A DNA stretch of 64,000 bases from an uncultured Bacteroidota bacterium (GCA_963701015.1 OY969556.1:4025509-4089508); one strand, 5' to 3'. Positions 1,910 to 29,770 are shown, counted from the stretch's first letter. Notes: generated by a model from the sequence alone, not told the origin. Made by a program: numbers and translations.

Positions 1910-2676
1910 AAATAATTTTTTAAGATTTCATACGCTTGAATTGCCCTTGCTTTATAACTATAATCAAAATTAATACTTTTGTTGTATGCCAAAACCCTCA
2001 ATTTATTGACGGCATCAGTAGAAAGGCTTAATAATTCTACAACTTTTTCTCTACATCCTTCAGTAGTATTATAAAGAAATATTTCTTTCCCATTTTCAAA
2101 AAACATTCTATGTTCAGGGGTATCAGGGGCCAATTGAATACCACCAACAGCCGGAATTTCAAATGTACGCATGTTATGTGATGCTAAATTGTGAATACGC
2201 ATAATGTTTAATTGCACCCTGTATTGCCGCATTACTTTGTAAAAATCGTTTCCATATATTGCCGGAAAAAGATTATTTTGCTTCGAAGAAACAAATTTCC
2301 CCCAATTATTACCATATATATCAAGTTTAATCCCTAATTTGTTAAGTTCTTTTATAAAACTGGCTCTGTCATTATCAGGGTTTCCCAAAAAACATGGTTT
2401 CACAATTTCTGGTACTTTCAAAATTTCATCAATGTTTATTTGGCTTAAATCATAACCAAAAGGTAAAAATTCAACAGGTTTATTTGTAAACTTAATTAAT
2501 TGCTTTTGTATTTCAAGGTTATAGGTAAAATGGATGTTGTATAACCCTATCGACTCGGTAACATTGCTGTTGCCGCTTCCCCTGCCCGTGAAAATAAATG
2601 GATTATCTGGATTATAATTGGCGAGTTTTATTCCCAATCGTTTTGCTTTTATAAGTGTTTCTGGCAGTACCTGCAT
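1906..2676 (-). CDS. CgeB-like glycosyltransferase (DUF3880 + Glyco_trans_1_2 type), apparently lacking its N-terminus
   Basis: 256-aa ORF with ...NYNPDNPF... and a C-terminal GT-B half. 78 further sense codons with family-like sequence (IYFDYL...KPEWIWVFKG) run upstream in the same frame to the TAG of the preceding gene, with no ATG/GTG/TTG among them. Confidence 0.6.
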   Translation of the reverse strand: MQVLPETLIKAKRLGIKLANYNPDNPFIFTGRGSGNSNVTESIGLYNIHFTYNLEIQKQLIKFTNKPVEFLPFGYDLSQINIDEILKVPEIVKPCFLGNPDNDRASFIKELNKLGIKLDIYGNNWGKFVSSKQNNLFPAIYGNDFYKVMRQYRVQLNIMRIHNLASHNMRTFEIPAVGGIQLAPDTPEHRMFFENGKEIFLYNTTEGCREKVVELLSLSTDAVNKLRVLAYNKSINFDYSYKARAIQAYEILKNYL

Positions 2677-2910
2677 GCCTTTAAAAACCCATATCCATTC
2701 AGGTTTATATTCTTCAATGGTTTGCCAAAGTACGTTATTTATTTTTTGATATATGTCACTAATACCTATACGATTCTTAACTTTGTTAAGAATTGATTGG
2801 TTTAAATAATCGAAATATATATTTTGTGCAGCAAATAATTTTATATCTGAATTTATTTTCTGAATATATTTAAAATAATATCGTTCAATGGACCAGTATA
2901 TAATCGGATC

Positions 2911-4086
2911 CTATAAATAAAATTCGCATTTTTCTAAAATTGTTGTTGTTAAAATATTTACAGTTTTCTGTATTGTCCAATCTGAAATTATTTTTAATGA
3001 GTTTTGTCCCATAATTTTCAATTTTTCTTTATTCAGTTCTTTTTCAATAATTTTATTAAATGCATTTTCATCATTAATATCAAATACATAACCATTATAA
3101 TTATTTTTAATTAAATCATTTGCGCAGCCAACCTTATTGCTTGCAATAATAGCTTTGCCACATGCCATAGCTTCATTAATAGTAAGCCCCCATGTTTCGC
3201 CGGGTCCTTTTGAAGGCAAGCACAATACATCACAAACGTAGTAAATACTGGGCATAACGGACTGGTTCTGAAAGCCTAAAAAATGCACATTTTTATTCTC
3301 TTTGGCCATTTGTTTTAGCTCTGTCTCTAATTTACCGCTGCCGGTAAATATTAAATGTAAGTTTTTGTTATTACTTTTGTTAAATACCTTTAATAAAAAA
3401 ATTGGATTTTTCTTGGGTTCTAATTTACCAACAAATAATATTACTATATCATTTTCAGATATGTCCAAATTTTTTGCTAACTTGTTTGATTCTTCAGTTC
3501 TATTCAATTGAAAGAACTTATTATCAACACAGTGGGGCGCCCAAATCAATTGTTTTTCCTTTAAACCATGCTTTAAATAGTATTTTTTATTTTCACTACC
3601 AACATAAAATGCATAATTTACATATCGGAATATAAACTTAAGTGAAATCCTACGGAAAATTGTTTTTATATTTTTCTTTTCGTCTAATAAATTTGAATCA
3701 CCTCTGAAGAAGATAGGTATTTTTCCTTTGAAACTTAATAAAACTCTTAAATGACTTATAAATGACCAACCATATATTAAAATAGCATTGGCTTCCCATG
3801 TTTCAATGTCCTTTAATAAACTTGGGTTGTTAATGCCCCAAAAATGATGTGTTCCTGGTTTCTTTGAAATATTCTTTTCAAAGGTATATTCATATCCTTC
3901 TAATAGAGGAATATCCCATTTTATTACTTTTCCAAAACCCGGATCAAATTTATTACTCAAACATTCTTCACCCCATGTATAAAAAACTTTTAATTGAATA
4001 GATGGATTATTTGCAATTTCCTTAAAGACTGGTGCATTATATTGAATAGGATGGCTGATTATTATTGCTAATTTCAAGTGGTTCAT
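2911..4086 (-). CDS. GT4-family (GT-B, group 1) glycosyltransferase
   Basis: 391-aa ORF with an EX7E-type C-terminal motif (GETWGLTINEAMACGKAIIAS). Confidence 0.8.
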   Translation of the reverse strand: MNHLKLAIIISHPIQYNAPVFKEIANNPSIQLKVFYTWGEECLSNKFDPGFGKVIKWDIPLLEGYEYTFEKNISKKPGTHHFWGINNPSLLKDIETWEANAILIYGWSFISHLRVLLSFKGKIPIFFRGDSNLLDEKKNIKTIFRRISLKFIFRYVNYAFYVGSENKKYYLKHGLKEKQLIWAPHCVDNKFFQLNRTEESNKLAKNLDISENDIVILFVGKLEPKKNPIFLLKVFNKSNNKNLHLIFTGSGKLETELKQMAKENKNVHFLGFQNQSVMPSIYYVCDVLCLPSKGPGETWGLTINEAMACGKAIIASNKVGCANDLIKNNYNGYVFDINDENAFNKIIEKELNKEKLKIMGQNSLKIISDWTIQKTVNILTTTILEKCEFYL

Positions 4087-5915: not shown

Positions 5916-6990
5916 TGGGAAAAGTTAACACTTCCCCGCTATTGAGGGTCTATGTCTACAGGGCAAACGCATTAAAAACGACTGTATAGGGTTAATAAAT
6001 AGCATCTTATGGCATGTTTTACTTTTTTACCTCCCTGCCCTCCTTAAAAAGGAGGGTAAACTGAGTTGTGGACTGCGAATATGATCGCCCAGTTATAGCT
6101 CCTTTTAAAGTGGTTGGGGTTAATAAAAAACAAACAAATTTTAATGCGTTTGCCCTGGCTATGTTTATGCACATGTCTCTAAATCCCATATATTTCGCCC
6201 CAATGGGGCTATTAAAATTCATTTATATTATTCTTTAAACATATCATCACTAAGTGTTTTTTAATATTTTATTGGCTCCAGAGGGGTTAAATATTTATAG
6301 ATATAAACAATTATCCTGTTATTCTAGTCCCATGGGGACGAAATATTCAAGATGTGAGTATATCCATGTCTTGTAAAGGGGAGGAAACAAATTTATTTCT
6401 TTCTCCCTCTCCGTTTGGAGAGGGTTGGGGAGAGGTCAAATTCTTTTATTCCTCTTCTTTTTGGCTTGAACCAGTTGGAGGATTAAAGGAAAACGGTGGA
6501 CGGAAAAAGGATTGAAATAATGAGCGAGGGATGTCCACTTTTGAATTTATTCTCCTTCTTTTTGGCTTGAAACCCGAAGGGCTCAACGAAGTTAACCAAA
6601 AAGAAGCAAAACTTAGCGAAGCGTTCTCATGACCGAAGGGAGTAAAGTTCAAGTTTCAAGTTTCCCCTCCTTTTATAAGAACGGCAAAGCCCTCATGACC
6701 GAAGGGAATAACGGGTTGGGGTGGTTCTTAAGGCTCGCGGATGATCGGGCAATTTAACCTCACCCTTTCTCCCTCTCCAAAAGGAGAGGGAATAAAAATT
6801 TGAGTGCTGTCGTTCACGGTTGGTACGATCTGAAAGCCAATCAGCTCGTACAAAAGGGAACCCTCTACGCCAGCTGGGGCAGCTGGCAATGAGAATATCT
6901 AAAATTATTAGGCTCTGGCATACATGGATGGTGCGAGTTTGTTGGTCAGTCAAAGGTACTGACAACATGTTCGTGCCAGTTGGTTGCTAA
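5850..6990. repeat. GC-hairpin mosaic region (modular REP/BIME/BOX-like repeats)
   Basis: A dense series of short palindromic units shared with 20.1-28.6 kb, often in opposite orientation. Examples are CTCCCTCTCC..GGAGAGGGTTGGGGAGAGG and CTTAGCGAAGCGTTCTCATGACCGAAGGGAGT. ORFs here have nonsense-like low-complexity translations. Confidence 0.85.
5959..6157. repeat. 199-bp segment bounded by a perfect 19-bp inverted repeat
   Basis: CAGGGCAAACGCATTAAAA at 5959-5977 pairs with TTTTAATGCGTTTGCCCTG at 6139-6157. The 161-bp interior contains a CCCTCCTTAAAAAGGAGGG hairpin. Confidence 0.85.
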
Positions 6991-8517: not shown

Positions 8518-8598
8518 ATGTCCGCGCCAGCAAATGGATAATGAAGTTACAAACTTCAGGAATATATAGGCACTAGTTGCAGACTTGCGCCATACTGG
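8518..8598. repeat. about 82-bp direct repeat flanking the DUF4160/DUF2442 cassette (left copy)
   Basis: ATGTCCGCGCCAGCAAATGGATAATGAAGTTACAAACTTCAGGAATATATAGGCACTAGTTGCAGACTTGCGCCATACTGG is about 80% identical to 9224-9306. Confidence 0.8.
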
Positions 8599-8663
8599 CA
8601 TTTAACACTACAAATTGAGAAACCGAGGAAATTTATTTATCTTTGTATATAAAGATAGAGTTT

Positions 8664-8966
8664 ATGCCTAAATTGTATGAATATTTCGGATTGATTTTTC
8701 TATTTTACTCTCAAGAGCATGAACCGATTCATGTTCATGGGAAATATCAAGATAAGGAAAGTAAAGCTGAGATTATCTTTGAGAATGGGAAGTTTAAGGA
8801 AATTGTAATTAAAGATGTTCCAGGTAAAGCTCCATTAGATACACAAAATCTTAAAAAGTTCAAAAAAGTAATTGAATTGTACCGTGATGATATAGTTAGA
8901 AAATGGATTGACTTTTTTGTTTATAATATTGAGTTTCCATCTGAAAAAATAACAAAAAAAATATAA
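8664..8966 (+). CDS. DUF4160-family small protein
   Basis: The ORF has an EHEPIHVHGKY motif. The ATG at 8664 is preferred over the TTG at 8643. It sits 2 nt from the downstream DUF2442-like ORF. Confidence 0.65.
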   Translation: MPKLYEYFGLIFLFYSQEHEPIHVHGKYQDKESKAEIIFENGKFKEIVIKDVPGKAPLDTQNLKKFKKVIELYRDDIVRKWIDFFVYNIEFPSEKITKKI

Positions 8967-8968
8967 TT

Positions 8969-9211
8969 ATGGTCATATCGATTGATATAGCTGATTATGT
9001 AGGAGAATATAAAATTAAATTTTTATTCTCTGATGGAGTTGAGAAATTAATTGATTTCTCTGAGTTTTTAAAAGGAGCAAAGAATCCAATGACAAAAAAA
9101 TATCTTGATAAACAATTGTTCAAATCATATTCAATTAATTATGGAGATATAATTTGGAATGATTATGAAATGTGTTTCCCAATTTGGGATTTACATGAAG
9201 GGAAAATATAA
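8969..9211 (+). CDS. DUF2442-family small protein
   Basis: 80-aa ORF tightly coupled to the DUF4160 ORF. The same two-gene arrangement recurs at 25427-25877. Confidence 0.6.
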   Translation: MVISIDIADYVGEYKIKFLFSDGVEKLIDFSEFLKGAKNPMTKKYLDKQLFKSYSINYGDIIWNDYEMCFPIWDLHEGKI

Positions 9212-9223
9212 ACGCCGGCTAAA

Positions 9224-9306
9224 ATGTCCACGCAAGTAAAGGGATAATATTAAGTTATAAACTTCAAGAATATATAGGCACTAGTCGCAGATTTGTGCCA
9301 CACTAG
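9224..9306. repeat. about 82-bp direct repeat flanking the DUF4160/DUF2442 cassette (right copy)
   Basis: See 8518-8598. It contains a GGCAC...GTGCC stem. Confidence 0.8.
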
Positions 9307-9759: not shown

Positions 9760-9903
9760 CTATACAAAACCCTGACAATATTTTAAAGAATTTACTACAA
9801 TTTGTCTAATTTCTTTTCTTGTAAATACGTCAATCCAATTAATTGTAGTAATTGTAATAAAATATAGTTTGTCGTCACTTGGAATTTTGTACTTCTCCTA
9901 CAT
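9760..9903 (-). pseudogene. relic of a Y1 (IS200/RAYT-like) tyrosine transposase N-terminus
   Basis: The minus strand reads ATG TAG then EKYKIPSDDKLYFITITTINWIDVFTRKEIRQIVVNSLKYCQ. This resembles the conserved N-terminal region of Bacteroidota Y1_Tnp/REP-associated transposases. There is a stop at codon 2, and the relic is truncated next to a REP-like unit. Confidence 0.55.
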
Positions 9904-10134
9904 AATAACTAAAAAATATGTAAAATAGGATAACTTTCGCTATTGTGAAAATTATTTCTGTATTTGAATAATTAAGAGCTATTTTGTTGAGCAGTCAAAG
10001 GCACTGACAGCATGTCCGCGCCATCGGGGGTAATTTTGCAATAGTTATAGCCTTTTTTTAATTATAATTTTATTCATAATTAAATTTTTATTCATGATAT
10101 GGACCTATAGTATAGTAATTAAATAACTACATAA

Positions 10135-11753: not shown

Positions 11754-12035
11754 CAAGATACTACTTTCAGTTGTGAACTAAGCAATGCTTTCTCAATACC
11801 AAAGGGAGTAATACGCTTCGTTAATTTGAAGGTAGATAGTTTGCATATTTAAGCTCGGCAACCCCGGGCTTTATATATTTTGAAATATTCCTTTACCAGC
11901 AAATAAACACGCAAAATTCGGTTTAAGTGTTATTTTGTTGGTTAAGGCACTTAAAACATTTCAATACCAACTGGTTACCTACTAACTTTTGAATTTCATT
12001 TTATAAGCCAAACTATAATTGCTCCTATTTCAAAG

Positions 12036-18774: not shown

Positions 18775-20112
18775 TTAAATAGTTTCTGAATTAATCCAAT
18801 CAATTTTTGGCATTATTACACCAGGCCTGTTGTCGGCATATTGTTTGTTAAGTCCATCAATGTTAATAATAGAAAAGGGATATATAACTTTTTCAAAGCT
18901 TATCCATTTTACATTATGTATTCCAATGGCAATATTAATAATATAGGAACCAGGTTTTAAAAAATTTGAAGGAATTATTGCAGTTGATTTATAATTTCCA
19001 ATTTCAAAAGTCTCTGTTCGTATAATATCATCATGAAAAGTTCTGAAAAGTGTAAGCCCACTTTTAGAATCAATTAAATCAAAACCTATTCTTAGCCCAC
19101 TTATTTTTTTCTTTACAAAATATTCATATTCAATAATTATTTCATCTTTTGTATAAAACTCATTAGCATTTGATCCTTTCTGATATATATTTAACTTTTT
19201 AAGTTTAAAATATTCATCATCTGGTAAATTTATTTCTGCCAAAGAATCTCTGCTTTCTTTATTATTATTGGCAGATGATAAATAATATTCAATACCTTCA
19301 TTAACATTACCATTATAAACTGTTGTTCCGTTTTGAAGTACATATAAATTATTGCATAAATTCGCAATAGCAGTCATATTATGGCTCACAAATATAACAG
19401 TTCGGCCTTGTCCCTGGCTTACTTCCTGCATTTTGCCAATGGCTTTTTTCTGGAACTCGGCATCGCCCACGGCCAATACTTCATCAACCACCAATATTTC
19501 CGGCTCCAAATGGGCTGCCACTGCAAAGCCCAGGCGCACGGTCATACCGCTACTGTAACGTTTTACGGGAGTGTCAATGTATTTTGCTACGCCGGCAAAA
19601 TCAACAATTTCGTCCAGCTTCTTGTCAATTTCCCACTTGCGCATGCCCATTATGGTTCCATTCACGTAAATGTTTTCGCGGCCGGTCATTTCGGGGTGAA
19701 AGCCCGTGCCAACTTCCAGTAGGCTGGCAATACGGCCTTTTACTTTTATACTGCCCGTGGTGGGAGAGGTTACCTTGGAGAGTATTTTTAGCAAGGTGCT
19801 TTTACCGGCACCGTTTTTGCCTATAATACCCAGCACTTCGCCCTGCTTAACTTCAAGGTTAATATCCTTTAAAGCCCAAACTAATTCGGCCTCCCCCCTG
19901 CCCCCTCCATGAGAGGGGGAGTTAGCCTTCCCCCCTTTGGGGGGATTGAGGGGGGCTAATATATTTGTCTGCCCTACTTTGGTATAAGGGTCGGGTTGCC
20001 CAAGCAGGTTCATGCGCCACCAGCGGTTAAGGTCGTGGCTAAGCGTGCCGGTGCCTATTTGCCCCAGGCGGTAAAGTTTCGAGAGGTTTTCAATTTTAAT
20101 TACGGTGGACAT
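18775..20112 (-). CDS. wzt: O-antigen/glycan ABC exporter ATP-binding protein Wzt, with a C-terminal glycan-binding-type domain
   Basis: Walker A GKNGAGKSTLLK, signature YSSGMTVRL and Walker B ILVVDE, plus an extra C-terminal domain of about 190 aa. It carries an in-frame GC-rich palindromic insertion at 19888-19956. Confidence 0.85.
   Translation of the reverse strand: MSTVIKIENLSKLYRLGQIGTGTLSHDLNRWWRMNLLGQPDPYTKVGQTNILAPLNPPKGGKANSPSHGGGRGEAELVWALKDINLEVKQGEVLGIIGKNGAGKSTLLKILSKVTSPTTGSIKVKGRIASLLEVGTGFHPEMTGRENIYVNGTIMGMRKWEIDKKLDEIVDFAGVAKYIDTPVKRYSSGMTVRLGFAVAAHLEPEILVVDEVLAVGDAEFQKKAIGKMQEVSQGQGRTVIFVSHNMTAIANLCNNLYVLQNGTTVYNGNVNEGIEYYLSSANNNKESRDSLAEINLPDDEYFKLKKLNIYQKGSNANEFYTKDEIIIEYEYFVKKKISGLRIGFDLIDSKSGLTLFRTFHDDIIRTETFEIGNYKSTAIIPSNFLKPGSYIINIAIGIHNVKWISFEKVIYPFSIINIDGLNKQYADNRPGVIMPKIDWINSETI
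19888..19956. repeat. REP-like double-hairpin unit inserted in frame within wzt
   Basis: CCCCCTC-catga-GAGGGGG and CCCCCC-ttt-GGGGGG followed by ATTGAGGGGGG. On the coding strand it is translated as ILAPLNPPKGGKANSPSHGGGRGEAE. Confidence 0.8.
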
Positions 20113-20775
20113 TGTGTAAATTACAAATTACAAAGGACAATTTGCAAAATTAGCGAATTTATACCAAAACGGAAAATGAAAAAGGGAAAAGGCCTCTCCC
20201 CAACGCTACTCCCTTCGGTCGTGAGAACGCTGCGCTTAGTTCTCCCAAGGAGAGGGAGAAAGATAAAAAATAATTTCTTAAAGTCCCTTTCTTTAGGAAA
20301 GGGTTGGGGATAGGCTACTTTAAAGAGCGGTGGCCAGATCATCCGCGTAAGCCAGCGTTGGCTTTGAGCGAGGGGTTTCGGATGATCTTGAATTTTACTC
20401 CCTTCGGTCATGAGAACGCTTCGCTAAGTTTTGCTTCTTTTTGTGTCAAGACAAAAAGAAGAGGAATAAAAGAAATTGGCCTCTCCCCAGCCCTCCCCTA
20501 AGGAGAGGGAGAAAGATAAAAAATTGTGAATTTACTTTTCTTTGCCTGCCATACATAGAAAAGGTAACAAAAGAAAAATCACTACGGATACCATCCCCAA
20601 GCCAATCTATTCGCACATGCCACCGCCACTTGTGCCGATTGGCTTTCGGATCGCACTATCCGTGGACGTCAACGCGCAAAGCAATTTAATGAATTATCTT
20701 CTTATCATGCGAAGCATGAAAGAGTGTGAGCCAGATCATCCGCGCGAGCCAGTGTTGGCTTTGAGCGAGGGGTAT
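20113..20775. repeat. GC-hairpin mosaic region upstream of wzt
   Basis: Contains a vestigial heptamer tract (20166-20192), the GATCATCCG...CGGATGATC long hairpin (twice), the 32-bp mini-insert (20208-20239, 20397-20428), hairpin+TTGGGG units and the 89-bp repeat (20579-20667). Confidence 0.85.
20145..20164 (-). promoter_or_regulatory. conserved promoter-like box (TAATTTTG on the coding strand), 33 nt upstream of the wzt ATG
   Basis: The plus strand reads CAAAATTAGCGAATTTATAC, so the coding strand carries TAATTTTG, which matches the Bacteroidota -7 consensus TAnnTTTG. The box recurs upstream of 5 other starts. Confidence 0.55.
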
Positions 20776-20841
20776 AGTTTCGAGAGGTTTTACCTTCGGT
20801 GAGAACGCTTCGCTTAGTTCAATTTTAATTACGGTTGACAT
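20776..20841 (-). pseudogene. duplicated 5' end of wzt (38 bp of CDS) interrupted by a 28-bp mini-insertion
   Basis: AGTTTCGAGAGGTTTT[ACCTTCGGTGAGAACGCTTCGCTTAGTT]CAATTTTAATTACGGTTGACAT compared with the uninterrupted 20075-20112. Confidence 0.9.
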
Positions 20842-20887
20842 TGTGTTAATTACAAATGACTAATTACTAATTACAAATTACAATTTA

Positions 20888-20907
20888 CAAAATTAGCGAA
20901 ATTATAA
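20888..20907 (-). promoter_or_regulatory. conserved promoter-like box copy
   Basis: CAAAATTAGCGAAATTATAA, 47 nt upstream of the relic wzt start. Confidence 0.45.
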
Positions 20908-20908
20908 T

Positions 20909-21141
20909 AAAACGGAAAATGGTTGGCGGAAAACGGTAAACGGAGTAAGGTAAAAGGGTAAACGGAGAAGGGAGAACGGAAAACGGTTGGCGGAAAACGG
21001 AAGAAGGGGAAAGGAAAACGGAAAACGGGGAATGGAGGAAGGAGGACGGAAAACGGTAAACGGAAAACGGTAAACGGAGAAGGGAAGACGGTAAACGGAG
21101 AAGGGAGAATGGAGGAAGGAAAACGAGGAATGGAGGAAGGA
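20909..21141. repeat. purine-rich heptamer minisatellite, array 1 (about 33 units)
   Basis: GGAAAAC/GGTAAAC/GGAGAAG/GGAGAAC units stay in a continuous 7-bp phase, with one 8-bp slip. Confidence 0.9.
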
Positions 21142-21183
21142 TAAATGAAACTGTCTTATTTGTTATTGAAACCCACCCCTTAG

Positions 21184-21199
21184 CCCCTCCCGGGAGGGG
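21184..21199 (-). terminator. candidate hairpin terminator or insulator (perfect 16-bp palindrome)
   Basis: CCCCTCCCGGGAGGGG lies 18 nt downstream of the stop of the 21218-22006 ORF. There is no clear U-tract. Confidence 0.3.
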
Positions 21200-21217
21200 A
21201 AATTGAATTATGTTTTT

Positions 21218-22565
21218 TCATTTTACCACCTCCCAATGCCCCCCTTTATCGGGGCCAATGCGTTTAATTGCTTTTCTGTCTTTTAATATTTTTAAATATC
21301 TTTGAATAGACCGTTCTGTAAGGGTCATTCTTTTTGCCAAATCGGAAGCTGATAATTGATTGTTTATTTTCAATAATTTAATTATTTCTATCTCATTTTC
21401 TACGACATTTTCTACGACATTTTCGGTGTCCTTATCGAATGTTTCAATATTTGCAGTCGTCTTTTGTTTGGTATAACTTAATTCAACAAAAAAACCGTTT
21501 GGAATTTCGTTGTAATCGAAATTCATTGTCGGGTATTGCCTAAGTTCATCACGTATCCGTTTAAACCCACTGCCATATTTTTCAATATCGCCGGTTAAAT
21601 AAAATGCTTCGGCCAGTAATTTATTTCGGGCATAGGCCTGATAATTATTGGTTTTTAAATCGGCAATAGTTAGATTGCCAAACAAAGTGCCGGGATTAAA
21701 AAAAGTAATGCTTTTGTCGAATATCTTAATTTGAATATCAACAGGGCTTAAATAATCGCGATGGATTAGCGAGTTTAATACCAATTCCCTGAGCGCTGGC
21801 AAGGGGTATTCAAATATTTCGGTTCGTTGTGTTGTTCTACCTGAAATTTCGAAAGCTACTTTTATTTGCGAAATTAAATATTTCATGGTTTCATCAACAG
21901 CCTCAAACAAGGGTAACCTCAACATTTTATCGTCAATAATAAGCGATGGGGTTTTAAAACGGCCTAAATGCACATTATACGAAATATCGGTTTTTGCAAA
22001 AAGCAAGTATGCTGCATTTGTAATTTTATTATTTGAAATGAACCTGAGTTTTTCGAGATTTTCAATCGTAGTCCCTTCTAAATTTAAAACGCCCGATAGT
22101 ATTTACTTTCTGTATAAATTTATCTACCTTTTTGAGGTCAATATCCACTAAATTTATATTATTTGCAGGATATGAATCCCATGAAACCTGCAGCGATTGC
22201 ATGCTTAAATCGGCTATCTCAAGTGCAGTCAACTGGTGATTCGAGTTTTTTACCCTTTTATAATAACGGCCTTTAAACGAAATTGGCTTTACCGGAAATT
22301 CATGAATAATTAAGGCAACTGTTTTTTTGCCTTTATAATTTATTAATTCAATATCAGGAATAATGGAGGGTTGTGTTTTTACTTTTATTTCGTTTATCCA
22401 TTTTTGAAAAGTTTCTTTGCCATACGTGAAGTTTTTATTAATACTTCCGTCATCGTTAATGCCAACAAATACTTTACCCCCTTTACAATTGGCATAGGCA
22501 ACCAAAGTTTCAATAACAGTATCGTTAAAGCCTGATTTATATTCTATGTGCTCGTTTTCAAGCAT
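21218..22565 (-). pseudogene. Schlafen/AlbA_2 + HATPase_c_4-like + wHTH putative regulator, split by a frameshift
   Basis: ORFs 22062-22565 (AlbA_2 N-terminus, HIEYKSGF...) and 21218-22006 join to read ...GRFKLEGTTIENLEKLRFISNNKITNAAYLLFAKTD if one T is removed from the run at about 22080-22090. Confidence 0.75.
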
Positions 22566-22598
22566 TAGGTAGTATTTTTTTTAACACTTTACCAATTA

Positions 22599-22618
22599 CA
22601 AAATTAGTGAATTTATAA
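22599..22618 (-). promoter_or_regulatory. conserved promoter-like box copy
   Basis: CAAAATTAGTGAATTTATAA, 34 nt upstream of the AlbA_2 ORF start. Confidence 0.5.
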
Positions 22619-22902
22619 TAAAACGGAAGACGGTAAACGGAGAAGGGAAAACGGAGAAGGGAGAACGAAAAACGGAGAATGGTAAACGGAGAAGGGAAAA
22701 CGGAAAACGAGGAATGGTAAACGGAGAAGGGAGAACGGAAAACGGAAAACGAAAAACGGAGAATGGTAAACGGAGAAGGGAGAACGGAAAACGGAAAACG
22801 GAAAACGGGGAATGGAAAACGGAGAAGGGAGAACGGAAAAAGGGAAACGGAGAAGGGAAATCGAAAAACGGAAAAGGGAAAACGGAGAAAGGAAAACGAG
22901 GA
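22619..22902. repeat. purine-rich heptamer minisatellite, array 2 (about 40 units)
   Basis: Same heptamer family, with a 49-bp higher-order repeat (GAGAATGGTAAACGGAGAAGGGAGAACGGAAAACGGAAAACGAAAAACG). Confidence 0.9.
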
Positions 22903-23099
22903 TAATTTTTTAAAAATTAGGGCAAAATTTCAAAATTATGCAAATTCGTATTCCACACTATTTACAGGTATTTGTCATCATTTACTTTAATTAAAAATAT
23001 CTATAGCTTTTTCAATTAAATAGGCTTTTATCTCTTCTTCATTAACAGCCGGTACAATATATTCAACAGGCTCGGAGTAATCAATGTCATTAAAATAGG

Positions 23100-23603
23100 C
23101 TAACTGGCACTGAATTGTTTCTCGGAAAATAAATCATTGTATATAGTTAAGGCCTTTTCTGAAACTTGTTTAATGGAATAAAATTTTCTTAAAATAAAAT
23201 ATAAATCAACATAATCTTTCCATTTCGATCGTCTGCTCATGGCAAATGCCTTCATAGCAGCTAATGTTAATAAATCAGGCATTTTTAAATACCCCTCAAA
23301 TTCACACGACGCAATTATTTGATAAGGGTACTGAAAAAAAGTAAATTTTACATCTTGAATAGTTACATTTAGCTGTTCATAAACCCTTCTGTTAACAATA
23401 TACTTTTTATGTAACGAATCAATCTTTTTAAGCAACCTTTTAGGTTGGATTTCATTTTGTTTAAACAAATCAAAATCAATAGATCTTCTATGGCCAATGT
23501 GTAATGCAATAGCAGTTCCTCCAACAAGATAAAATTCTCTTTTAAACAATTTCACCAATGGCAATAATTCTAATTGATCAGTATTTAAAATTTCTTTATG
23601 CAT
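23100..23603 (-). CDS. AbiEii/AbiGii-type nucleotidyltransferase toxin-like protein (3' end frameshifted)
   Basis: LVGGTAIALHIGHRRSIDFDLF motif. A further 37 codons (QLAYFNDIDYSEPVEYIVPAVNEEEIKAYLIEKAIDIFN*) continue in another frame down to 22987. Confidence 0.65.
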   Translation of the reverse strand: MHKEILNTDQLELLPLVKLFKREFYLVGGTAIALHIGHRRSIDFDLFKQNEIQPKRLLKKIDSLHKKYIVNRRVYEQLNVTIQDVKFTFFQYPYQIIASCEFEGYLKMPDLLTLAAMKAFAMSRRSKWKDYVDLYFILRKFYSIKQVSEKALTIYNDLFSEKQFSAS

Positions 23604-23871
23604 ATCGTGAGAAAAGAATAAAAAAGTAATTATAAATTTCAGGAAAGAAATTCATTTTCTTCCTACCTTGCATATTATTAAACACTTTTGCCACGTTTTC
23701 AATACCCATTATTGAAAAAAGTTTATGCACTGCATCTAATGAGCCATAATTTAAAATGTGTTCTACCAATAATTCGTGGCTTATATTCTCCTTTTCTTTT
23801 TCGGGTGTGTACCAAAAAAGGGAGCTGTTTTGGCGTATAAATGCTTTTAGTTCTTCAGTATTTTCAGGCAT
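23596..23871 (-). CDS. small partner protein of the AbiEii-like gene (putative antitoxin)
   Basis: 91-aa ORF overlapping the downstream NTase gene by 8 nt. Confidence 0.45.
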   Translation of the reverse strand: MPENTEELKAFIRQNSSLFWYTPEKEKENISHELLVEHILNYGSLDAVHKLFSIMGIENVAKVFNNMQGRKKMNFFPEIYNYFFILFSRYA

Positions 23872-23898
23872 CTAGATAGTATTAGAAATATAAAATTA

Positions 23899-24194
23899 CT
23901 AAAATATACTTGTAAACATTTTATATAAGGTAATTTTGCCTGCCCCGTTACGGCCAGTTATGCCCACACGGTCGTTTGTTTTATTTCAAAATTTAAATCC
24001 TTTAAAGCCCAAAAATCTTCCATTTCATCGTTGGCAATAAGCTGTCCGCCTTTAAATATTTGGCGGGTTTTAGATGCTATTTGCCGGACTTTATTGGCCA
24101 GAACATCGCGCAAAGCGGTATAACGCTCGTGCTTTTCGTGGCCTATAATATAACTTTTGCCCAGGTTCTCGGCTTTAATTACTGTATGGCTCAT
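23899..24194 (-). pseudogene. relic of a second, divergent wzt/tagH-type ABC ATPase gene (N-terminal about 90 codons, frameshifted and truncated)
   Basis: Encodes MSHTVIKAENLGKSYIIGH...FWALKDLNFEIKQ, then after a 1-nt shift DRVGITGRNGAGKITL (Walker A). Homology ends where the AbiE-like pair begins. Confidence 0.85.
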
Positions 24195-24240
24195 GAAGAC
24201 AATTACTAATTACTTATCACAAATGTCAAATGACAATTTG

Positions 24241-24260
24241 CAAAATTAGTGAATTTATAA
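24241..24260 (-). promoter_or_regulatory. conserved promoter-like box copy
   Basis: CAAAATTAGTGAATTTATAA, 47 nt upstream of the relic wzt' ATG. Confidence 0.5.
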
Positions 24261-24280
24261 CAAAACAGAAAATTGTAGTC

Positions 24281-24550
24281 GGAAGACGGAGAAGGGAAAA
24301 AGGTGGACGGAAAACGGAAAACGGAGAATGGAAAACGGAGGATGGTGGACGGAAAACGGAGAAGGGAAAACGGAAAACGGAGAATGGTAAACGGAGAAGG
24401 GAGAATGGTAAACGGAGAAGGGAGAATGGTAAACGGAGAAGGGAGAATGGTAAACGGAGAAGGGAGAACGGAAAACGAAAGACGGAGAATGGTAAACGGA
24501 GAAGGGAGAACGGAAAACGGAGAAAGGAAAACGGAAAACGGGGAAGAGAA
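24281..24550. repeat. purine-rich heptamer minisatellite, array 3 (about 38 units)
   Basis: Includes 3 perfect copies and 1 near-perfect copy of the 21-bp unit GGTAAACGGAGAAGGGAGAAT at 24386-24469. Confidence 0.9.
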
Positions 24551-24835
24551 ATAATATTTGTGAGATTGTTGTAATTTGAAACCCACCCTTTAGCCCCTCC
24601 CGGGAGGGGAAATATTTTTTCGTATCACACAAAGTGTGAAAGAGCGATGGCTTGATCATCCGAGCGAGCCTTAAGAACCACCCATTAGCCCCTCCTTTAA
24701 AAGGAGGGGAAACTGATTTGTTAACTTTACTCGACTTCGTCTAATGAACTAAGCGAAGCGTTCTCACGAGTTTTACGAGTAGCTTAGCCTTTGGCGTTCT
24801 CACGACCAAAGGGAATAAATCGCTTCGCTTAGACA
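24551..24835. repeat. conserved 285-bp GC-hairpin block (copy a)
   Basis: Collinear with 28126-28410, and partly with 26221-26345 and 21142-21215. It contains CCCCTCCCGGGAGGGG, TCACAC-aaa-GTGTGA, GATCATCCG... and CCCCTCCTTTAAAAGGAGGGG. Confidence 0.9.
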
Positions 24836-25400
24836 GCCCGCAGCTGAAATTGTATTTTTTTTATCACACTTTGTGTGAAAGAGCGTGAACCAGATCATCC
24901 GCGCGAGCCAGCGTGGGCATTGAGCGAGGGGTTTCGGATGATCTTGAATTTTACTCCCTTCGGTCATGAGAACGCTTCGCTAAGTTTTGCTTCTTTTTGG
25001 TTCATGCCAAAAAGAAGGGGAATGAATGCAAAAGATTTGCTGTTGTATTTATTATATGCAATGTTGGCTAGTAGCGATTTATTTTTCTTTGCTTGCCATG
25101 CAAAGAAAAGGTAACAAAACTTAGCGATATGGTTTACTCACTGTGGTCATGAGAACGCGTTGCTAAGTTCATGAACGAAGGGAGCAAAGGGGTTGGGGAT
25201 AGGCCTTTTGGCTTTCGGACCGCACCATCTGTGGACTCCCTACGCGCAAAGCTCAAAACTCTTTACAGTTTACAACCATTTACCGTTAACCGTTTTCCTT
25301 TTATCCGTCAAATGGTTCAAGCCAAAAATAAGAGGAATGCTGGAAAAAGCTTTATTTGTAAATTAAAATCAGCTTTAACCGCCTATCGAGGAAATGAAGT
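24836..25400. repeat. GC-hairpin mosaic region
   Basis: Same modules as 20113-20775, in similar order. Confidence 0.85.
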
Positions 25401-25426
25401 TGAATTTAACCATTTTCCCATTATTG

Positions 25427-25663
25427 TTAATATAACAATGCTTCAACTAAAATATCTTCATCAAGAATTTCCCAATGAATCCCTTCGCCACCACCAATAA
25501 ACCTATAATTTTCCCTATCTTTTTTGGAAGCATCGCGCAAACTGGGAAACCAATCAATTGGTACTGAAAGTTCTCTTCCATCGTCAAGTAAAATATGCAT
25601 CATTAAGTCTGAAAACCAAACTTTTGTTGCATTAGCCGATTTAATAATTGTTGTGATATTCAT
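25427..25663 (-). CDS. DUF2442-family small protein
   Basis: 78-aa ORF (ILLDDGRELSVPIDWFPSLRDAS...GIHWEILDEDI) that overlaps the upstream DUF4160 ORF. Confidence 0.65.
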   Translation of the reverse strand: MNITTIIKSANATKVWFSDLMMHILLDDGRELSVPIDWFPSLRDASKKDRENYRFIGGGEGIHWEILDEDILVEALLY

Positions 25664-25877
25664 TCCATTTAATATTAAGAAAGTCTAAATTTTGAATTAT
25701 TAAATTTCTTATTTCATGAATCTCTGAAGAATTAAAATGTTTTGATTTAATAATTTCAACAGGATTTAATAAAAATTTTGCGGTACCTTCTGCTTTTTCA
25801 ATATGAATATGTGCAGGAGAATGATCATTAACATAAAAGAAAAACCTGTATCCATTAATATTTAATATTGTTGGCAT
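25641..25877 (-). CDS. DUF4160-family small protein
   Basis: 78-aa ORF with a HSPAHIHIEKAEGTAKF motif. Confidence 0.65.
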   Translation of the reverse strand: MPTILNINGYRFFFYVNDHSPAHIHIEKAEGTAKFLLNPVEIIKSKHFNSSEIHEIRNLIIQNLDFLNIKWNEYHNNY

Positions 25878-25905
25878 AACAATTTAGATATTGTTTGACA
25901 AAACT

Positions 25906-25925
25906 CAAAATTAGCGAATAAAATA
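25906..25925 (-). promoter_or_regulatory. conserved promoter-like box copy (proximal)
   Basis: CAAAATTAGCGAATAAAATA, 29 nt upstream of the DUF4160 ATG. Confidence 0.5.
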
Positions 25926-25968
25926 ACTTATTGCCAATGACTAATTACTGATTATAAATGATAATTTT

Positions 25969-25988
25969 CAAAATTAGCGAATTTATAA
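25969..25988 (-). promoter_or_regulatory. conserved promoter-like box copy (distal, tandem)
   Basis: CAAAATTAGCGAATTTATAA, directly abutting array 4. Confidence 0.45.
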
Positions 25989-25989
25989 T

Positions 25990-26222
25990 AAAACGGAAAA
26001 AGGGAAACGCAGTAAGGAAAAAGGGAAAACGGAGAAGGGAGAAGGGAGAAAGGAAAACGGGAAAGGAAAACGGAAAACGGAAGACGGAAGACGGAAAACG
26101 GGGAATGGAGAATGGTAAACGGAGAACGGAAAACGGAAGACGGAAGACGGAGAAGGGAAAACGGAAGACGGAAGACGGAGAACGGAAAAAGGAAAAAGGA
26201 AAATGGAAAACGGGGAAGAGAA
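25990..26222. repeat. purine-rich heptamer minisatellite, array 4 (about 33 units)
   Basis: Same heptamer family (GGAAGAC, GGAAAAC, GGAGAAG ...). Confidence 0.9.
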
Positions 26223-26900
26223 ATAATATTTGTGAGATTGTTGTAATTTGAAACCCGCCCCAACCCCTCCCGGGAGGGGAAATATTTTTTCGTATCACAC
26301 GAAGTGTGAAAGAGCAGCGGCCGGATCATCCGCGCGAGCCAGCGTTGGCTTTTAGCGAGGGGTTTCGGATGATCTTGAATTTTTGCTTCTTTTTGGTTCA
26401 GGCCAAAAAGTAGAGGAATAAATGAAATTGGCCTCTCCCCAGCCCTCTCCTAAAGAGAGGGAGTAGGAAAGTATTAAAAAATTTGGTGCAAAATAAATTA
26501 TTTCATAAAACTTCTTTCTTTTGGAACTTAGCGAAACGGTCTCATGACCGAAGTGAGTAAAGGGGTTTGGGATAGGCACTTTGGCTTTCAGATCGCACTA
26601 TCCGTGGACGACAGCGCGCAATACTCAAGACTTTTAACTGTATAAAACCATTTACCATTCACCGTTTTCCTTTTATCTGTCAAATGGTTCAAGACAAAAA
26701 GAAGAGGAATAAAATTTAGGAGAATTGTGCTCTCAATCCCCCAGCCCCCTTTTCAAAGGGGGAAAGCCCTGCTTTACAGTATAAAACCATTTACCTTTCT
26801 CCGTTTTCCTTTTATCCGTCAAATGGTTCAGGCCAAAAAGTAGAGGAATGCAAAGCTTTTGTAATACGCGTTTAAACTATCTTCATGAACGAAGTGTATA
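26223..26900. repeat. conserved hairpin block (copy b) plus GC-hairpin mosaic
   Basis: 26223-26345 matches 24553-24670. It is followed by an empty site for the 32-bp mini-insert (T-run 26380-26384), hairpin+TTGGGG units and two AACCATTT...AAATGGTT units. Confidence 0.85.
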
Positions 26901-26967
26901 AACTCGTACAAGTTGGACATTATGTATAAATCACTAACATCTATCAACAAGCAACTTACAACCTCTT

Positions 26968-27837
26968 TTATACGGTATCAATAAAACTTCTTTCAGTACG
27001 GTTAAAGATAATTATACCTAAAAACAAAACCACCAGGGTAAAAACTGTAGTGTATATTATCCCGGTTGAACTATGGGTGCCTGAACCCAGGAATCCGTAT
27101 TTAAATGTTTCTAAAATTGGTGTCATAGGATTAGCCATAATGAAAGGGCGTAATTTGCCATGAATCATAGAAACAGGGTAAATTACAGGGGTTGCATACA
27201 TAAGTAATTGAACTCCAAATGTTATAAGAAATGTCAGGTCGCGGTATTTAGTTGTTAGCGAAGTGAAAATAATCCCGAATCCCAAGCCAAGTCCACCCAT
27301 CAATAAAATAAGATACGGTGTTAACAACATATAAATATTGGGATGAATTGACAAATTGTGTTTTAATAAATAATAAATAAATACAGCTAAAAACAAACCA
27401 AATTGGATGCCAAATTTTATTAATCCCGATAAAACTTTTGACATTGGTGAAACAAGCCTTGGGAAATAGACCTTACCAAAAACATTGGCATTATCGGTAA
27501 ATGTCTTAGATGTTATACTAAAGCATTCTGAAAAATAATTCCAAACAATAATACCTGCAAGATAGAATAGCATCATGGGAATACCATCGGTAGGCATTTT
27601 GGCAATATTACCGAAAACCACAATATATATAGCCGTGGTTAAAATAGGTTGAAGTATAAACCAAATTGGACCAAGAACGGTTTGTTTATAAACCGTAACA
27701 ATGTCACGTTTAACAAACATGGTAAGTAAGTCACGATACTGCCAAATTTCTTTCAGGTTAATATCGAGAAGATGTTTCTTAGGCTGTATTATTTGAGTCC
27801 ATTGCTCTTCCGTAGTATTAAATTTTTCTTCGGGCAT
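26968..27837 (-). CDS. wzm: ABC-2 type glycan/O-antigen exporter permease Wzm
   Basis: 289-aa ORF with 6 predicted TM segments and a typical N-terminus (...EIWQYRDLLTMFVKRDIVTVYKQTVLGPIWFILQP). Confidence 0.85.
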   Translation of the reverse strand: MPEEKFNTTEEQWTQIIQPKKHLLDINLKEIWQYRDLLTMFVKRDIVTVYKQTVLGPIWFILQPILTTAIYIVVFGNIAKMPTDGIPMMLFYLAGIIVWNYFSECFSITSKTFTDNANVFGKVYFPRLVSPMSKVLSGLIKFGIQFGLFLAVFIYYLLKHNLSIHPNIYMLLTPYLILLMGGLGLGFGIIFTSLTTKYRDLTFLITFGVQLLMYATPVIYPVSMIHGKLRPFIMANPMTPILETFKYGFLGSGTHSSTGIIYTTVFTLVVLFLGIIIFNRTERSFIDTV

Positions 27838-27886
27838 TCTATTTTAAATTACCTATTACAAATGATTGTTAACAAATGATAAATTG

Positions 27887-27906
27887 CAAAATTAAGGAAA
27901 TTAAAC
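27887..27906 (-). promoter_or_regulatory. conserved promoter-like box copy
   Basis: CAAAATTAAGGAAATTAAAC, 50 nt upstream of the wzm ATG. Confidence 0.5.
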
Positions 27907-27918
27907 CAAATCTGACAA

Positions 27919-28125
27919 TGGAAAAGGGAGTTCGGAAAACGGAAGACGGAAAAGAGAGAAGGGAAGTCAATTACAAATTACGAATGACAAATTGGAAAAC
28001 GGAAAACGGAAGACGGAAGACGGAGAAGGGAAAACGGATAAGGGAAATCAATGACAAATTACAAATTACGGATGACAAATTGGAAAACGGAAGACGGAGA
28101 AGGGAAAACGGAGAACGGGAAAAAG
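27919..28125. repeat. heptamer minisatellite, array 5 (about 29 units, interleaved with A/T heptamers)
   Basis: GGAAAAC/GGAAGAC/GGAGAAG runs are interrupted twice by ATTACAA-ATTACGA-ATGACAA type heptamers, in the same 7-bp phase. Confidence 0.9.
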
Positions 28126-28410
28126 AAATAAGATTTGTGAGAGGGGTGTAATTTGAAACCCACCTCAACCGCTTCCGGGAGGGGAAATAATTTTTCGTAT
28201 CACACGAAGTGTGAAAGAGCGCGAGCCTGATCATCCGCGCGAGCCTTAAGAACCACCCCTTAGCCCCTCCTTTTAAAGGAGGGGAAACTGATTTGTTAAC
28301 TTTACTCGACTTCGTCTCATGAACTAAGTGAAGCGTTCTCACGAGTTTTACGAGTAACTTAGCAACGCGTTCTCACGACCAAAGGGAGTAAAACGCTTCG
28401 CTAAGTTCTA
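28126..28410. repeat. conserved 285-bp GC-hairpin block (copy c)
   Basis: Collinear with 24551-24835. Confidence 0.9.
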
Positions 28411-28639
28411 AGGGAGAAAAGCCTTGCCTTACAATATAAAACCATTTACCGTTCACCGTTTTTCTTTTATCCGTCAAATGGTTCAAGCCAAAAAGAAGAG
28501 GAATGTTAGCAAAAGCTTTAATACTTTATTGGTATGGAATTTATTTTTTATTTTGTAACACACGCTAGTAGTGTCACCACAGCTACTATCAGTTGATGCT
28601 TTGTACGTAATGCAAATTAATTTCCACTCCCGGGAAGGG

Positions 28640-29770
28640 TTAGAGTAGTGGTTGTTCTAAATCTAATACTTCTTTTCGAATCCATATTTGGAAAAGGGGA
28701 TCAGAGAAAACATAACCTTTATTAGTCTTCAAAATCAAACCTTTATTCAATAGAGCATGTATGGTACGTGAAATATTAATCAATTTTACATCAATAGTCG
28801 AATAGGGTTTTAAGCTTTCAGCCAAAGCCAATAAAACTGTCCGTTGCTCACGACTGCCAGATATGTCTTCCCATAATTTTTCGAGATAACCTTTTTCTGA
28901 ATCCAAAAGTAAGGACAGAATTAAATCATAAGCTTTTTGGGTATCGTTGGGTAATTCATTAACCAATAGTAAATGCTGTAGCACAAGTGATGAATAGTAT
29001 GGGTGCCCTCCGGTAAAATCGAGTAATTTATCTATTAGCAGATTATTTACCTTAATTCCCGATAGGTTGAGTTTTGAAGTATAATATTTTTTATAGGTTT
29101 TAGAGTCAATACAGCCTATGTGAACAATACGGGCAAATCGATAAAAAGGCGATTTTGCAGTGGTAAACAATTGGTTCATCACCGATTCGTAGCTTCCTGA
29201 AAAAATATAACTAACATTTTTTTGGGTTTGCATTTTAGCCCGCAGCATTTTTGCAACGTCCGTTCCGCCAAGTTTCTCAATGTCCCCAAATTCATCAAGC
29301 CCTATAATTAATTGTTTTTGGTATTTTAATGAAAACTTATCGGCAAAGTCAATGCTGTTTTCAAGTAATTCCCAAGGATCACTTTCGGGTTTGGCATATT
29401 TCAGTACAAAATCAAATTCTTCAATAGTACTGCGTAATTCAACATTTTTAATCAGTTCGCCTAAGTTCTTTTTTACCAATTGAATAATATTTTCGAGTTT
29501 CTTATTTTCTAAAATCTTGGAAGTTAATTGTTCTGATAGTCTCGTAATGTCGCGGGTAGTAAAAATATCAAGGTATGCAGTAAATTCCCCTTCATTCTTC
29601 AATAAGTCCAATATTTTAAATACCAGTGAGGTTTTACCAAAACGTCTGGGCGCTATTAAAACAACACTTTGTCCATTTTTCAATAAATTGCAAAGTTCAG
29701 CGATTTCTTTTGTACGCCCAATAAAATCAATACCCGTTACCGGTTTCCCTACTTGTAATGAATGTGTCAT
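28640..29770 (-). CDS. AAA+ ATPase (archaeal-ATPase/Orc1-like P-loop protein)
   Basis: 376-aa ORF with Walker A (IAPRRFGKTSL) and Walker B (IIGLDEF). Confidence 0.6.
   Translation of the reverse strand: MTHSLQVGKPVTGIDFIGRTKEIAELCNLLKNGQSVVLIAPRRFGKTSLVFKILDLLKNEGEFTAYLDIFTTRDITRLSEQLTSKILENKKLENIIQLVKKNLGELIKNVELRSTIEEFDFVLKYAKPESDPWELLENSIDFADKFSLKYQKQLIIGLDEFGDIEKLGGTDVAKMLRAKMQTQKNVSYIFSGSYESVMNQLFTTAKSPFYRFARIVHIGCIDSKTYKKYYTSKLNLSGIKVNNLLIDKLLDFTGGHPYYSSLVLQHLLLVNELPNDTQKAYDLILSLLLDSEKGYLEKLWEDISGSREQRTVLLALAESLKPYSTIDVKLINISRTIHALLNKGLILKTNKGYVFSDPLFQIWIRKEVLDLEQPLL

Follow-up and report, generated by a model that had tools for sequence, protein, structure and literature searches.

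A very small TT-bounded DNA unit of Bacteroidota, probably an insertion module

A short unit is dispersed in both orientations through a 64,000-nucleotide stretch of the genome of an uncultured Bacteroidota bacterium (GCA_963701015.1 OY969556.1:4025509-4089508), the whole of which is referred to here as the window. Our analysis suggests that this unit is probably the core of a very small, non-coding and non-autonomous insertion module that occurs across Bacteroidota. The broader statement, that it is a discrete mobile or insertable module of some kind, appears highly likely. A preliminary description of the window, made from its sequence, had reported about a dozen copies on both strands, and this number holds: three exact matches to the 32-mer ACTCCCTTCGGTCATGAGAACGCTTCGCTAAG lie at 6612-6643(-), 20397-20428(+) and 24953-24984(+), two copies with three mismatches at 20208-20239(+) and 26527-26558(-), and looser scans together with a profile search recovered the other diverged copies. 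The total is about 13, of which 3 are exact 32-mers and about 10 are diverged or partial (Table 1), whereas no copy is expected by chance (100 shuffles of the window). The size first given, 26-32 bp, has to be corrected to 28 or 34-35 nt once the TT end is counted. The ends, TTACC… and …CTWAGTT, are not complementary, in line with the earlier remark that terminal inverted repeats are not obvious.

Results

Filled and empty versions of the same site

The two comparisons on which the preliminary description had based its proposal of a discrete insertion were both confirmed by sequence and by alignment. In the first, CTTGAATTTT[unit]TTTTGCTTC at 20387 and 24943 stands against CTTGAATTTTTGCTTC at 26374-26390, a net gain of 35 nt with the insertion point at CTTGAATTTT^TGCTTC. 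The host motif of this long form was found three times filled (20387, 24943 and 6612(-)) and once empty. In the second, a duplicated 5' end of the wzt gene carries a net 28 nt where the real wzt has GGTTTTCAAT. The insert interrupts the copied wzt codons (MSTVIKIENLSK…) and its length is not a multiple of three, which indicates that the filled state is the derived one. Additionally, the hairpin CCTCTCCCC…GGAGAGGG, which houses one of the diverged copies, has paralogues without the unit at ~20480-20510 and ~26432-26462, as judged by eye and with an imprecise junction.

More pairs were searched for by joining the flanks of every copy and looking for uninterrupted versions, and three clean filled/empty pairs were obtained in lineages outside the source of the window. 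A marine Flavobacteriales stretch (L079) has a filled and an empty paralogue of a ~150-nt element, with a net difference of 28 nt. Two homologous termite gut stretches (L039 and L053) are reciprocal, each being filled where the other is empty (+28 and +27 nt). In a metagenome-assembled genome (MAG) of Chryseobacterium sp. (CAYWET010000041.1; L021) the unit lies within GCGTTT^GCAACGC, the loop of a repetitive extragenic palindromic (REP) hairpin, a net gain of 28 nt over the plain REPs of homologous loci, which like L021 carry a REP-associated tyrosine transposase (RAYT). Altogether, presence and absence were seen in 5-6 independent comparisons.

The constant ends, the three further pairs and the derived state of the filled wzt copy argue for discrete insertion and not for deletion between T-runs. 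For the latter, the filled state would be ancestral, which we regard as very improbable. T-runs do flank the unit, so slippage is conceivable, and one copy family (the upstream fragments in L009, L035 and L078) shows an internal deletion between two CTTCG repeats. However, the empty wzt site is functional coding sequence whose frame a 28-nt insert would shift, the reciprocal termite gut pair would require two exact deletions, and the same unit with the same ends is found in dozens of unrelated contexts. Inconsistent boundaries among copies had been named at the outset as the sign of such deletions; in fact the boundaries agree across 39 short and 25 long non-redundant contexts from many genomes.

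An artefact of assembly, of adaptors or of chimera formation is hardly credible. The matches in genomes are all in MAGs, as an artefact might predict, but they come from independent assemblies of different studies and technologies and include mutated, nested and tandem copies. Moreover, short reads of the source sample, assembled separately (Logan ERR11718638), show the same junctions. This is the sole sample containing the source genome, and its contigs agree with the window: L032 holds the empty site together with the 26527 copy, and two others break inside unit copies, L031 starting in the 20206 copy and L033 ending in the 6610 copy. To our knowledge, the unit matches no sequencing adaptor.

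The clean junctions (n=6) have TT on both sides, or TTT in the case of the long form in the window. The preliminary description took this as a target duplication of 2-4 T within T-runs. The TT flanks themselves are borne out, but their origin may be either a 2-nt (once 3-nt) duplication or the insertion of an element that itself ends in TT beside a TT, without duplication, and the sequences are explained equally by both. The junction form …TT^[A…AGTT]^ is likewise compatible with insertion of the IS200/IS605 type and with a 2-nt duplication, and the tandem arrays described below (34/35 nt) are compatible with both.

A family with two size classes in Bacteroidota

A scan of one genome per species with the exact pattern CCTTCGGT, 0-3 nt, GAGAACGCTTCGCT found the core in 30 stretches (L001-L030) with unrelated contexts. 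Nearly all belong to Bacteroidales, Flavobacteriales, Chitinophaga, Saprospiraceae or unclassified Bacteroidota MAGs, with one atypical match in another candidate division; all 30 are MAGs, and this exact-pattern scan returned neither a cultured isolate nor a cyanobacterial genome. A metagenome collection added 46 further stretches with the core, and 2.9 million viral contigs gave a single match. Most genomes have 1-4 exact copies. As many as 73 of 76 copies are intergenic, in mixed orientation with respect to the neighbouring genes.

Two size classes recur, …TTA-CCTTCGGT-GAGAACGCTTCGCT-WAGTT… and …TTACTC-CCTTCGGT-CRT-GAGAACGCTTCGCT-WAGTT…, which correspond to a short form, TT-ACCTTCGGTGAGAACGCTTCGCTWAG, of 28 nt net and a long form, TT-ACTCCCTTCGGTCRTGAGAACGCTTCGCTWAG, of 34-35 nt net. 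Over the non-redundant contexts of both forms, conservation is at least 0.9 up to the outer TT on either side and then falls to background, with an information content of 1.5-1.8 bits inside and ~0.1 just outside TTA…WAGTT or TTACTC…WAGTT. Furthermore, head-to-tail arrays of 3-4 copies without any spacer have periods of 34 nt (L022/L065) and 35 nt (L034/L063), which fixes the length of the unit independently. A transposase beside the arrays was considered and discarded: the neighbours in L034 and L022 encode an enolase, L17, a glycosyltransferase, a methyltransferase and an ABC-2 permease.

In several lineages the unit recurs within larger multi-copy non-coding elements (context families A-C). 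One such host, the ~150-nt multi-copy non-coding element (…GTTGAAATMATTGTC…CCGATTTTTTCATCGG…ATTGTATCGAGAAT…), is common to marine Flavobacteriales and was seen in L013, L025, L044, L046, L047, L055, L059, L061, L067, L068, L074 and L079; four of these loci (L044, L046, L055 and L067) gave no Rfam match. In L043 (~1928-2028) two inverted copies ~40 nt apart form a REPIN-like doublet that lies in the conserved context of family C, GTCATTTA[unit]AAGTTCGACCGCAGGGAGAAATCTC. In L049, a short-form unit (1614-1635) is found ~12 nt past the 3' end of a 5S rRNA gene (1648-1730), in antisense orientation.

Target sites and predicted folding

Many copies lie between flanks that are complementary to each other but unrelated in sequence from site to site. 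Perfectly paired stems of 6 bp or more surround the unit in 26% of 70 contexts, compared with 5.4% in flank-swapped controls (maximum 11.6%). Several host hairpins (L026, L028, L011, L029 and L027) have the form …ATT / loop / AAT…, as do the REPs of RAYT class 2.6, and other copies lie in T-runs or directly beside hairpins. In the window, a conserved hairpin element of ~75 nt, located at 20322-20396, 20719-20775, 24878-24952 and 26309-26383, stands directly upstream of the site preferred by the unit; its 10-bp outer stem AGATCATCCG…CGGATGATCT encloses AGCCAGCGTTGGCT, and the element has no match in Rfam.

Taken by itself, the unit is predicted to lack structure. A C-UUCG-G tetraloop and conserved RNA structure had been suggested initially, and folding energies give this no support: on both strands, for both forms and as DNA or RNA, the unit folds no better than shuffles (z -0.3 to +1.7), and 197 of 200 shuffles of the long form fold at least as well as the RNA does. 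The sole possible pairings are mini-stems of 2-3 bp, CC-TTC-GG and GC-TTC-GC, with CCGAAGG and GCGAAGC on the other strand, none of them favoured by the energy model. The minus-strand GCGAAGC reportedly forms an exceptionally stable DNA mini-hairpin (Hirao et al.), which the energy parameters used may miss. Among the collected copies, which vary little and are biased by exact-match retrieval, a few plus-strand changes compatible with T·G pairs were noticed by eye; they are weak evidence for the mini-stems. Searches with Rfam 15 gave no match at gathering score in the window, only chance-level ones at permissive thresholds in 19800-29000, and nothing at the unit in 20 other loci. Within a host hairpin, it would be the unit that is held out, as a ~30-nt open loop.

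Identity and decay of the copies

The three exact copies of the window are identical at 32 of 32 positions. Between two of these copies the flanking sequence is 11% diverged (P=0.023 for 32 unchanged nucleotides), and around the third, 6612(-), it is largely unrelated. The unit is thus either of more recent date than its surroundings or under stronger constraint, which suggests that a preferred site was entered repeatedly or that gene conversion took place. The remaining copies of the window have 3-9 substitutions as well as indels, and include halved copies, inverted fragments and rearrangements, which indicates that individual copies are not under selection; one, 24794-24827(-), has palindromic arms, CCTTTGG…CCAAAGG. 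The identity of fresh copies across orders points to constraint at the source, be it recognition by an enzyme or a master template, and not to a function at each site. Copies are also carried passively when larger host repeats are duplicated. Upstream of the unit in L009, L035 and L078, the sequence ACTCCTCCGGCTTAG resembles a unit lacking the segment between two CTTCG direct repeats, and this internal deletion looks like one route of copy decay.

RAYT genes

A search by tblastn with Y1 transposase queries led to L021, the Chryseobacterium MAG mentioned above. Its region 2672-3538, in which two unit-bearing REPs flank the gene, contains an intact RAYT (189-aa open reading frame; NCBIfam NF047646, 93.6 bits against a cut-off of 80; Pfam Y1_Tnp) with the HUH motif NHLH and the Y motif YIHSNP, as in class 2.6, a Bacteroidetes-specific class with atypical REPs (PMC6006769). 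A copy of the short unit lies on either side of this gene, each in a 10-bp stem, that is, in a REP loop, with 3 differences between the two copies. A remnant of a RAYT gene in the window (Table 1) is an unproven candidate relative of the mobilising enzyme. The link between RAYTs and the unit is circumstantial: it consists of a single-strand HUH enzyme in these genomes and of the junction rule that such enzymes produce.

We also considered the unit as the atypical REP of class-2.6 RAYTs and rejected this as a general rule, as homologous loci have plain REPs and no unit. The unit is absent from the published class-2.6 REP list, none of the REPs in Table S1 of PMC6006769 matching it. On its minus strand, CTWAG precedes GCGAAGC, which resembles the GCTAG foot only loosely. 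Two side observations concern these genes. A REP-like GGACATGCTGTC hairpin (~10000-10025) adjoins the RAYT pseudogene of the window and resembles the REPs next to the L084 RAYT, and tandem pairs of Y1_Tnp (RAYT-like) genes are present in two unrelated loci (L081, 47-580 and 774-1343; L095, 3001-3576 and 3637-4188).

Genomic context of the window

Most copies in the window lie in a repeat-laden stretch of ~7 kb (20113-26967) between wzm (26968-27837) and wzt (18775-20112(-)), two genes of an ABC-transporter polysaccharide locus headed by an UpxY-like NusG; the window also encodes proteins sorted by the type IX secretion system. The NusG and these proteins place the window in Bacteroidota, and a Nostoc-like source, which the heptamer tandem repeats and nested small repeats might have suggested, was rejected. 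Between wzm and wzt are genes for an HATPase_c_4/HTH protein (21218-22006), a Schlafen/AlbA_2 protein (22062-22565), AbiEii (23100-23603) and an AAA-ATPase. Recurring intergenic modules (families D3-D13), ~1.5-1.9 kb from start to start, separate these unrelated defence-type genes. This arrangement is reminiscent of a cassette array, possibly one where recombination is frequent.

The first ~12 codons of wzt and the AT-rich region upstream of them (AATTACA-type repeats, TTCGCTAATTTTG) are duplicated (20776-20930 against 20075-20185). The upstream part of this duplication has 7 occurrences in the region (families D3 and D9) and may be a promoter module copied ahead of each cassette. Imperfect 7-nt tandem repeats of the GGAAAAC / GGAGAAG type, with spacings in multiples of 7, are found in long tracts at ~20900-21170, 22520-22975, 24177-24616, 25890-26260 and 27907-28068. 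Such tracts are unusual in Bacteroidota and resemble the heptamer short tandemly repeated repetitive tracts of Nostoc. Elsewhere in the window, a repeat of ~80 nt with CTGGCGCGGACAT at 8520-8600 and 9220-9300 brackets a two-gene insert (8643-9211).

Table 1. Copies of the unit, empty counterparts and the RAYT remnant, with positions in the window.
Feature	Position	Strand	Remarks
Long-form module TT-ACTCCCTTCGGTCATGAGAACGCTTCGCTAAG-TT	20395..20430	+	Core 20397-20428, exact; filled site; +35 nt net against 26374-26390
Long-form module, 32/32 identical	24951..24986	+	Filled paralogous site; flanks 11% diverged from the 20397 copy
Long-form module, 32/32 identical	6610..6645	-	Host motif common with the other two: ~10 nt left, ~18 nt right
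Empty host site CTTGAATTTTTGCTTCTTTTTG	26374..26395	+	T-run 26380-26384; present also in short-read contig L032
Short-form module ACCTTCGGTGAGAACGCTTCGCTTAG + TT	20792..20819	+	28-nt insertion within duplicated wzt 5' end
Empty counterpart GGTTTTCAAT	20085..20094	+	Within the real wzt coding start; N-terminus MSTVIKIENLSKLYRLG reads through the site
Diverged long-form copy, 3 mismatches	20206..20241	+	In loop of hairpin CCTCTCCCC…GGAGAGGG
Diverged long-form copy ACTCACTGTGGTCATGAGAACGCGTTGCTAAG	25134..25169	+	Core 25136-25167, looser scan
Diverged long-form copy, 3 mismatches	26525..26560	-	Present also in short-read contig L032
Mosaic cluster	28298..28410	-	Long form 28359-28390, variant ACTCGTAAAACTCGTGAGAACGCTTCACTTAG 28322-28355 and partial inverted pieces
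Mosaic cluster paralogous to 28298..28410	24735..24831	-	Variant 24747-24780, copy 24794-24827 and inverted 3'-end fragment; family D7
Diverged long-form copy ACTCCCTTTGGTATTGAGAAAGCATTGCTTAG	11779..11812	-	Inverted 3'-end fragment precedes
Half copy TTATTCCCTTCGGTCATGAG…	6689..6710 (approximate)	-	Also found in short-read contig L033 at 2662
RAYT remnant	9772..9903	-	59% identical to the L021 RAYT over 44 residues (tblastn, E 1e-12); stop at codon 2, residues 1-44 only

Discussion

A conserved enzyme, of the host or of a mobile element, could move the unit in trans by recognising single-stranded sequence, and recognition of this kind would account for identical fresh copies in distant orders despite the lack of a stable fold. 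The most specific candidate would be a single-strand 'peel and paste' reaction of the HUH/Y1 type, with insertion 3' of …TT of an element whose end, …AGTT, has the same dinucleotide, so that no true duplication would arise; the arrays without spacers would be explained by it as well. The class-2.6 RAYTs, which are specific to Bacteroidota, would be the obvious candidate enzyme. That a Y1/HUH enzyme moves the unit is nonetheless only a tentative proposal. Equally speculative is its extension to an undescribed class of 'nano-transposon' throughout Bacteroidota, in which a module of 28/34 nt without fold or repeats would be cut and pasted beside TT in exposed loops, REP loops included, by a conserved single-strand DNA enzyme, a domesticated class-2.6 RAYT being the most testable candidate for it.

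Several points weigh against this enzymatic view, or against mobility as such. The support for mobility is comparative throughout and no movement has been observed. Around other RAYTs, 58-79% identical to that of L021, the unit was found in none of 7 places (15 loci, 88.6 kb), so the presence of a RAYT does not predict that of the unit; plain REPs, GCTRG-CGCGCGTT-NNN-AACGCGTG, lie on either side of the RAYTs there. In L021 itself the unit is a passenger insert of the REP loop and not the REP. Y1 transposases normally need subterminal hairpins, and the unit is predicted to fold no better than shuffled sequence. For a selfish element with conservation across several orders, the low copy number is surprising, and retrieval by exact match skews the collected copies toward the consensus. 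Lastly, a short host motif is common to all three identical copies of the window, and these could stem from one insertion followed by gene conversion instead of from three events.

Among the alternatives, the unit could be a functional single-stranded recognition module, either a protein site or an RNA pairing partner looped on a stem, that selection maintains and that spreads through recombination or recruitment. We consider this unlikely. It would agree with a core of 22-25 nt identical across at least three orders, with the predicted absence of structure, with the frequent position as a ~30-nt loop on variable stems, with the recurrence in conserved multi-copy non-coding elements (context families A-C) and with the copy that adjoins the 3' end of a 5S rRNA gene. 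However, the orientation to neighbouring genes is mixed, no Rfam family is matched, and many copies of the window show decay, truncation, rearrangement or tandem accumulation, which is unexpected of selected sites. Furthermore, one copy landed in a pseudo-copy of wzt coding sequence, paralogues of the host elements exist with and without the unit, which is thus dispensable there, and precise insertion with TT boundaries in unrelated surroundings is not accounted for by recombination.

A master gene is a second, rather improbable alternative. A reverse transcriptase or a template-switching polymerase would make copies of a short stable RNA or DNA, and these would be used to mend breaks or stalled forks by way of TT/AA microhomology. 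This would explain identical fresh copies in distant lineages despite the low copy number, the TT on both sides of every clean junction and the preference for hairpins and T-runs, where replication stalls. Against it, no master locus was seen, the similarity across lineages being confined to the unit; two discrete forms coexist within one genome; no reverse transcriptase gene was noticed beside any copy; and the core matches no annotated Rfam RNA.

As an insertion module, which we still favour, the unit would rank with the smallest DNA elements for which mobility is apparent. On the usual view, a mobile element requires a gene for its enzyme or at least terminal repeats or hairpins of tens of bases per end. 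The sole reported exception of such size, the small dispersed repeats (SDRs) of Nostoc, has lacked a mechanistic explanation ever since 2008 and had been regarded as peculiar to a single family of cyanobacteria. The unit would add an independent family from a different phylum, and a more tractable one for finding the enzyme, with its sharp ends, TT target, clean pairs in several lineages and conservation across orders. If the nano-transposon idea were true, one general and as yet unexplained mode of DNA movement, at sizes far below that thought to be needed for transposition, would underlie both the unit and the SDRs of Nostoc. In addition, these modules break short-read assemblies, shift frames on landing in coding copies and alter REP and terminator hairpins, all of which matters for annotating the polysaccharide and defence loci of Bacteroidota.

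Comparison with known systems

A literature search by sequence returned only a chance primer match and keyword searches gave no description in Bacteroidota, much subscription literature lying outside the search. Like miniature inverted-repeat transposable elements, the unit is non-autonomous, non-coding and possibly bounded by a short TT duplication, but it is 2-10x smaller, has no terminal inverted repeats and no known parent insertion sequence (IS), and the duplication is ambiguous. Among single-strand transposons, IS608 inserts 3' of TTAC without duplication and has an end that resembles its target. Insertion of the unit 3' of a short target without duplication would fit the IS200/IS605 family and its miniature derivatives, the palindrome-associated transposable elements, in the same way, as would a unit end resembling the target. 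In contrast, those elements need subterminal hairpins and measure at least ~100 nt, whereas the unit has no such hairpins, and no tnpA or tnpB adjoins any of its copies. Insertion sequences that target REPs, such as IS1397, have also been described (Tobes and Pareja 2006, as cited in PMC3116915). The unit shares with them a preference for landing in hairpin or REP loops (L021, L026 and L028), but they are full-length and protein-coding and the unit is a 28-nt passenger without a gene.

The REP/REPIN sequences and their RAYTs (class 2.6 / Bertels group 5; PMC6006769, PMC3116915, PMC3733652) share several features with the unit. They too are short, extragenic and multi-copy, and form clusters and mosaics like those of bacterial interspersed mosaic elements; the unit is present in genomes that carry RAYTs, two copies flank the RAYT of L021, and a single-strand HUH reaction would fit insertion without a true duplication. 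However, the unit is non-palindromic and predicted to be unstructured, it lacks a GTAG or GCTAG foot-plus-hairpin, its arrays are direct and not inverted doublets, and it sits in REP loops as an insert. Whereas REPs flank their cognate RAYT, the unit was found beside a RAYT in L021 only and in none of 15 homologous loci.

Lastly, the small dispersed repeats SDR4/5/6 of Nostocaceae were reportedly presented by Elhai et al. (2008, Genome Res 18:1484). Later accounts describe the SDRs as dispersed modules of 21-27 nt with defined short targets, found only in Nostocaceae and unexplained as to mechanism and function; the 21-nt SDR5, according to these accounts, inserts between nt 3 and 4 of HIP1 (PMC5861425, PMC4390886, bioRxiv 10.64898/2026.06.24.733823). 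The unit differs from them in its phylum, in its length of 28/34-35 nt, in having TT and not HIP1 as its target and in a sequence common to several orders. Both are tens of nucleotides long, dispersed, mostly non-coding, near-identical among copies, precise in their choice of a short target, and present or absent in otherwise similar sequence, a likeness drawn from the descriptions of the SDRs. By this analogy, the unit appears to behave most like the SDRs of Nostocaceae, and the best reading of our data is that it represents their Bacteroidota analogue.

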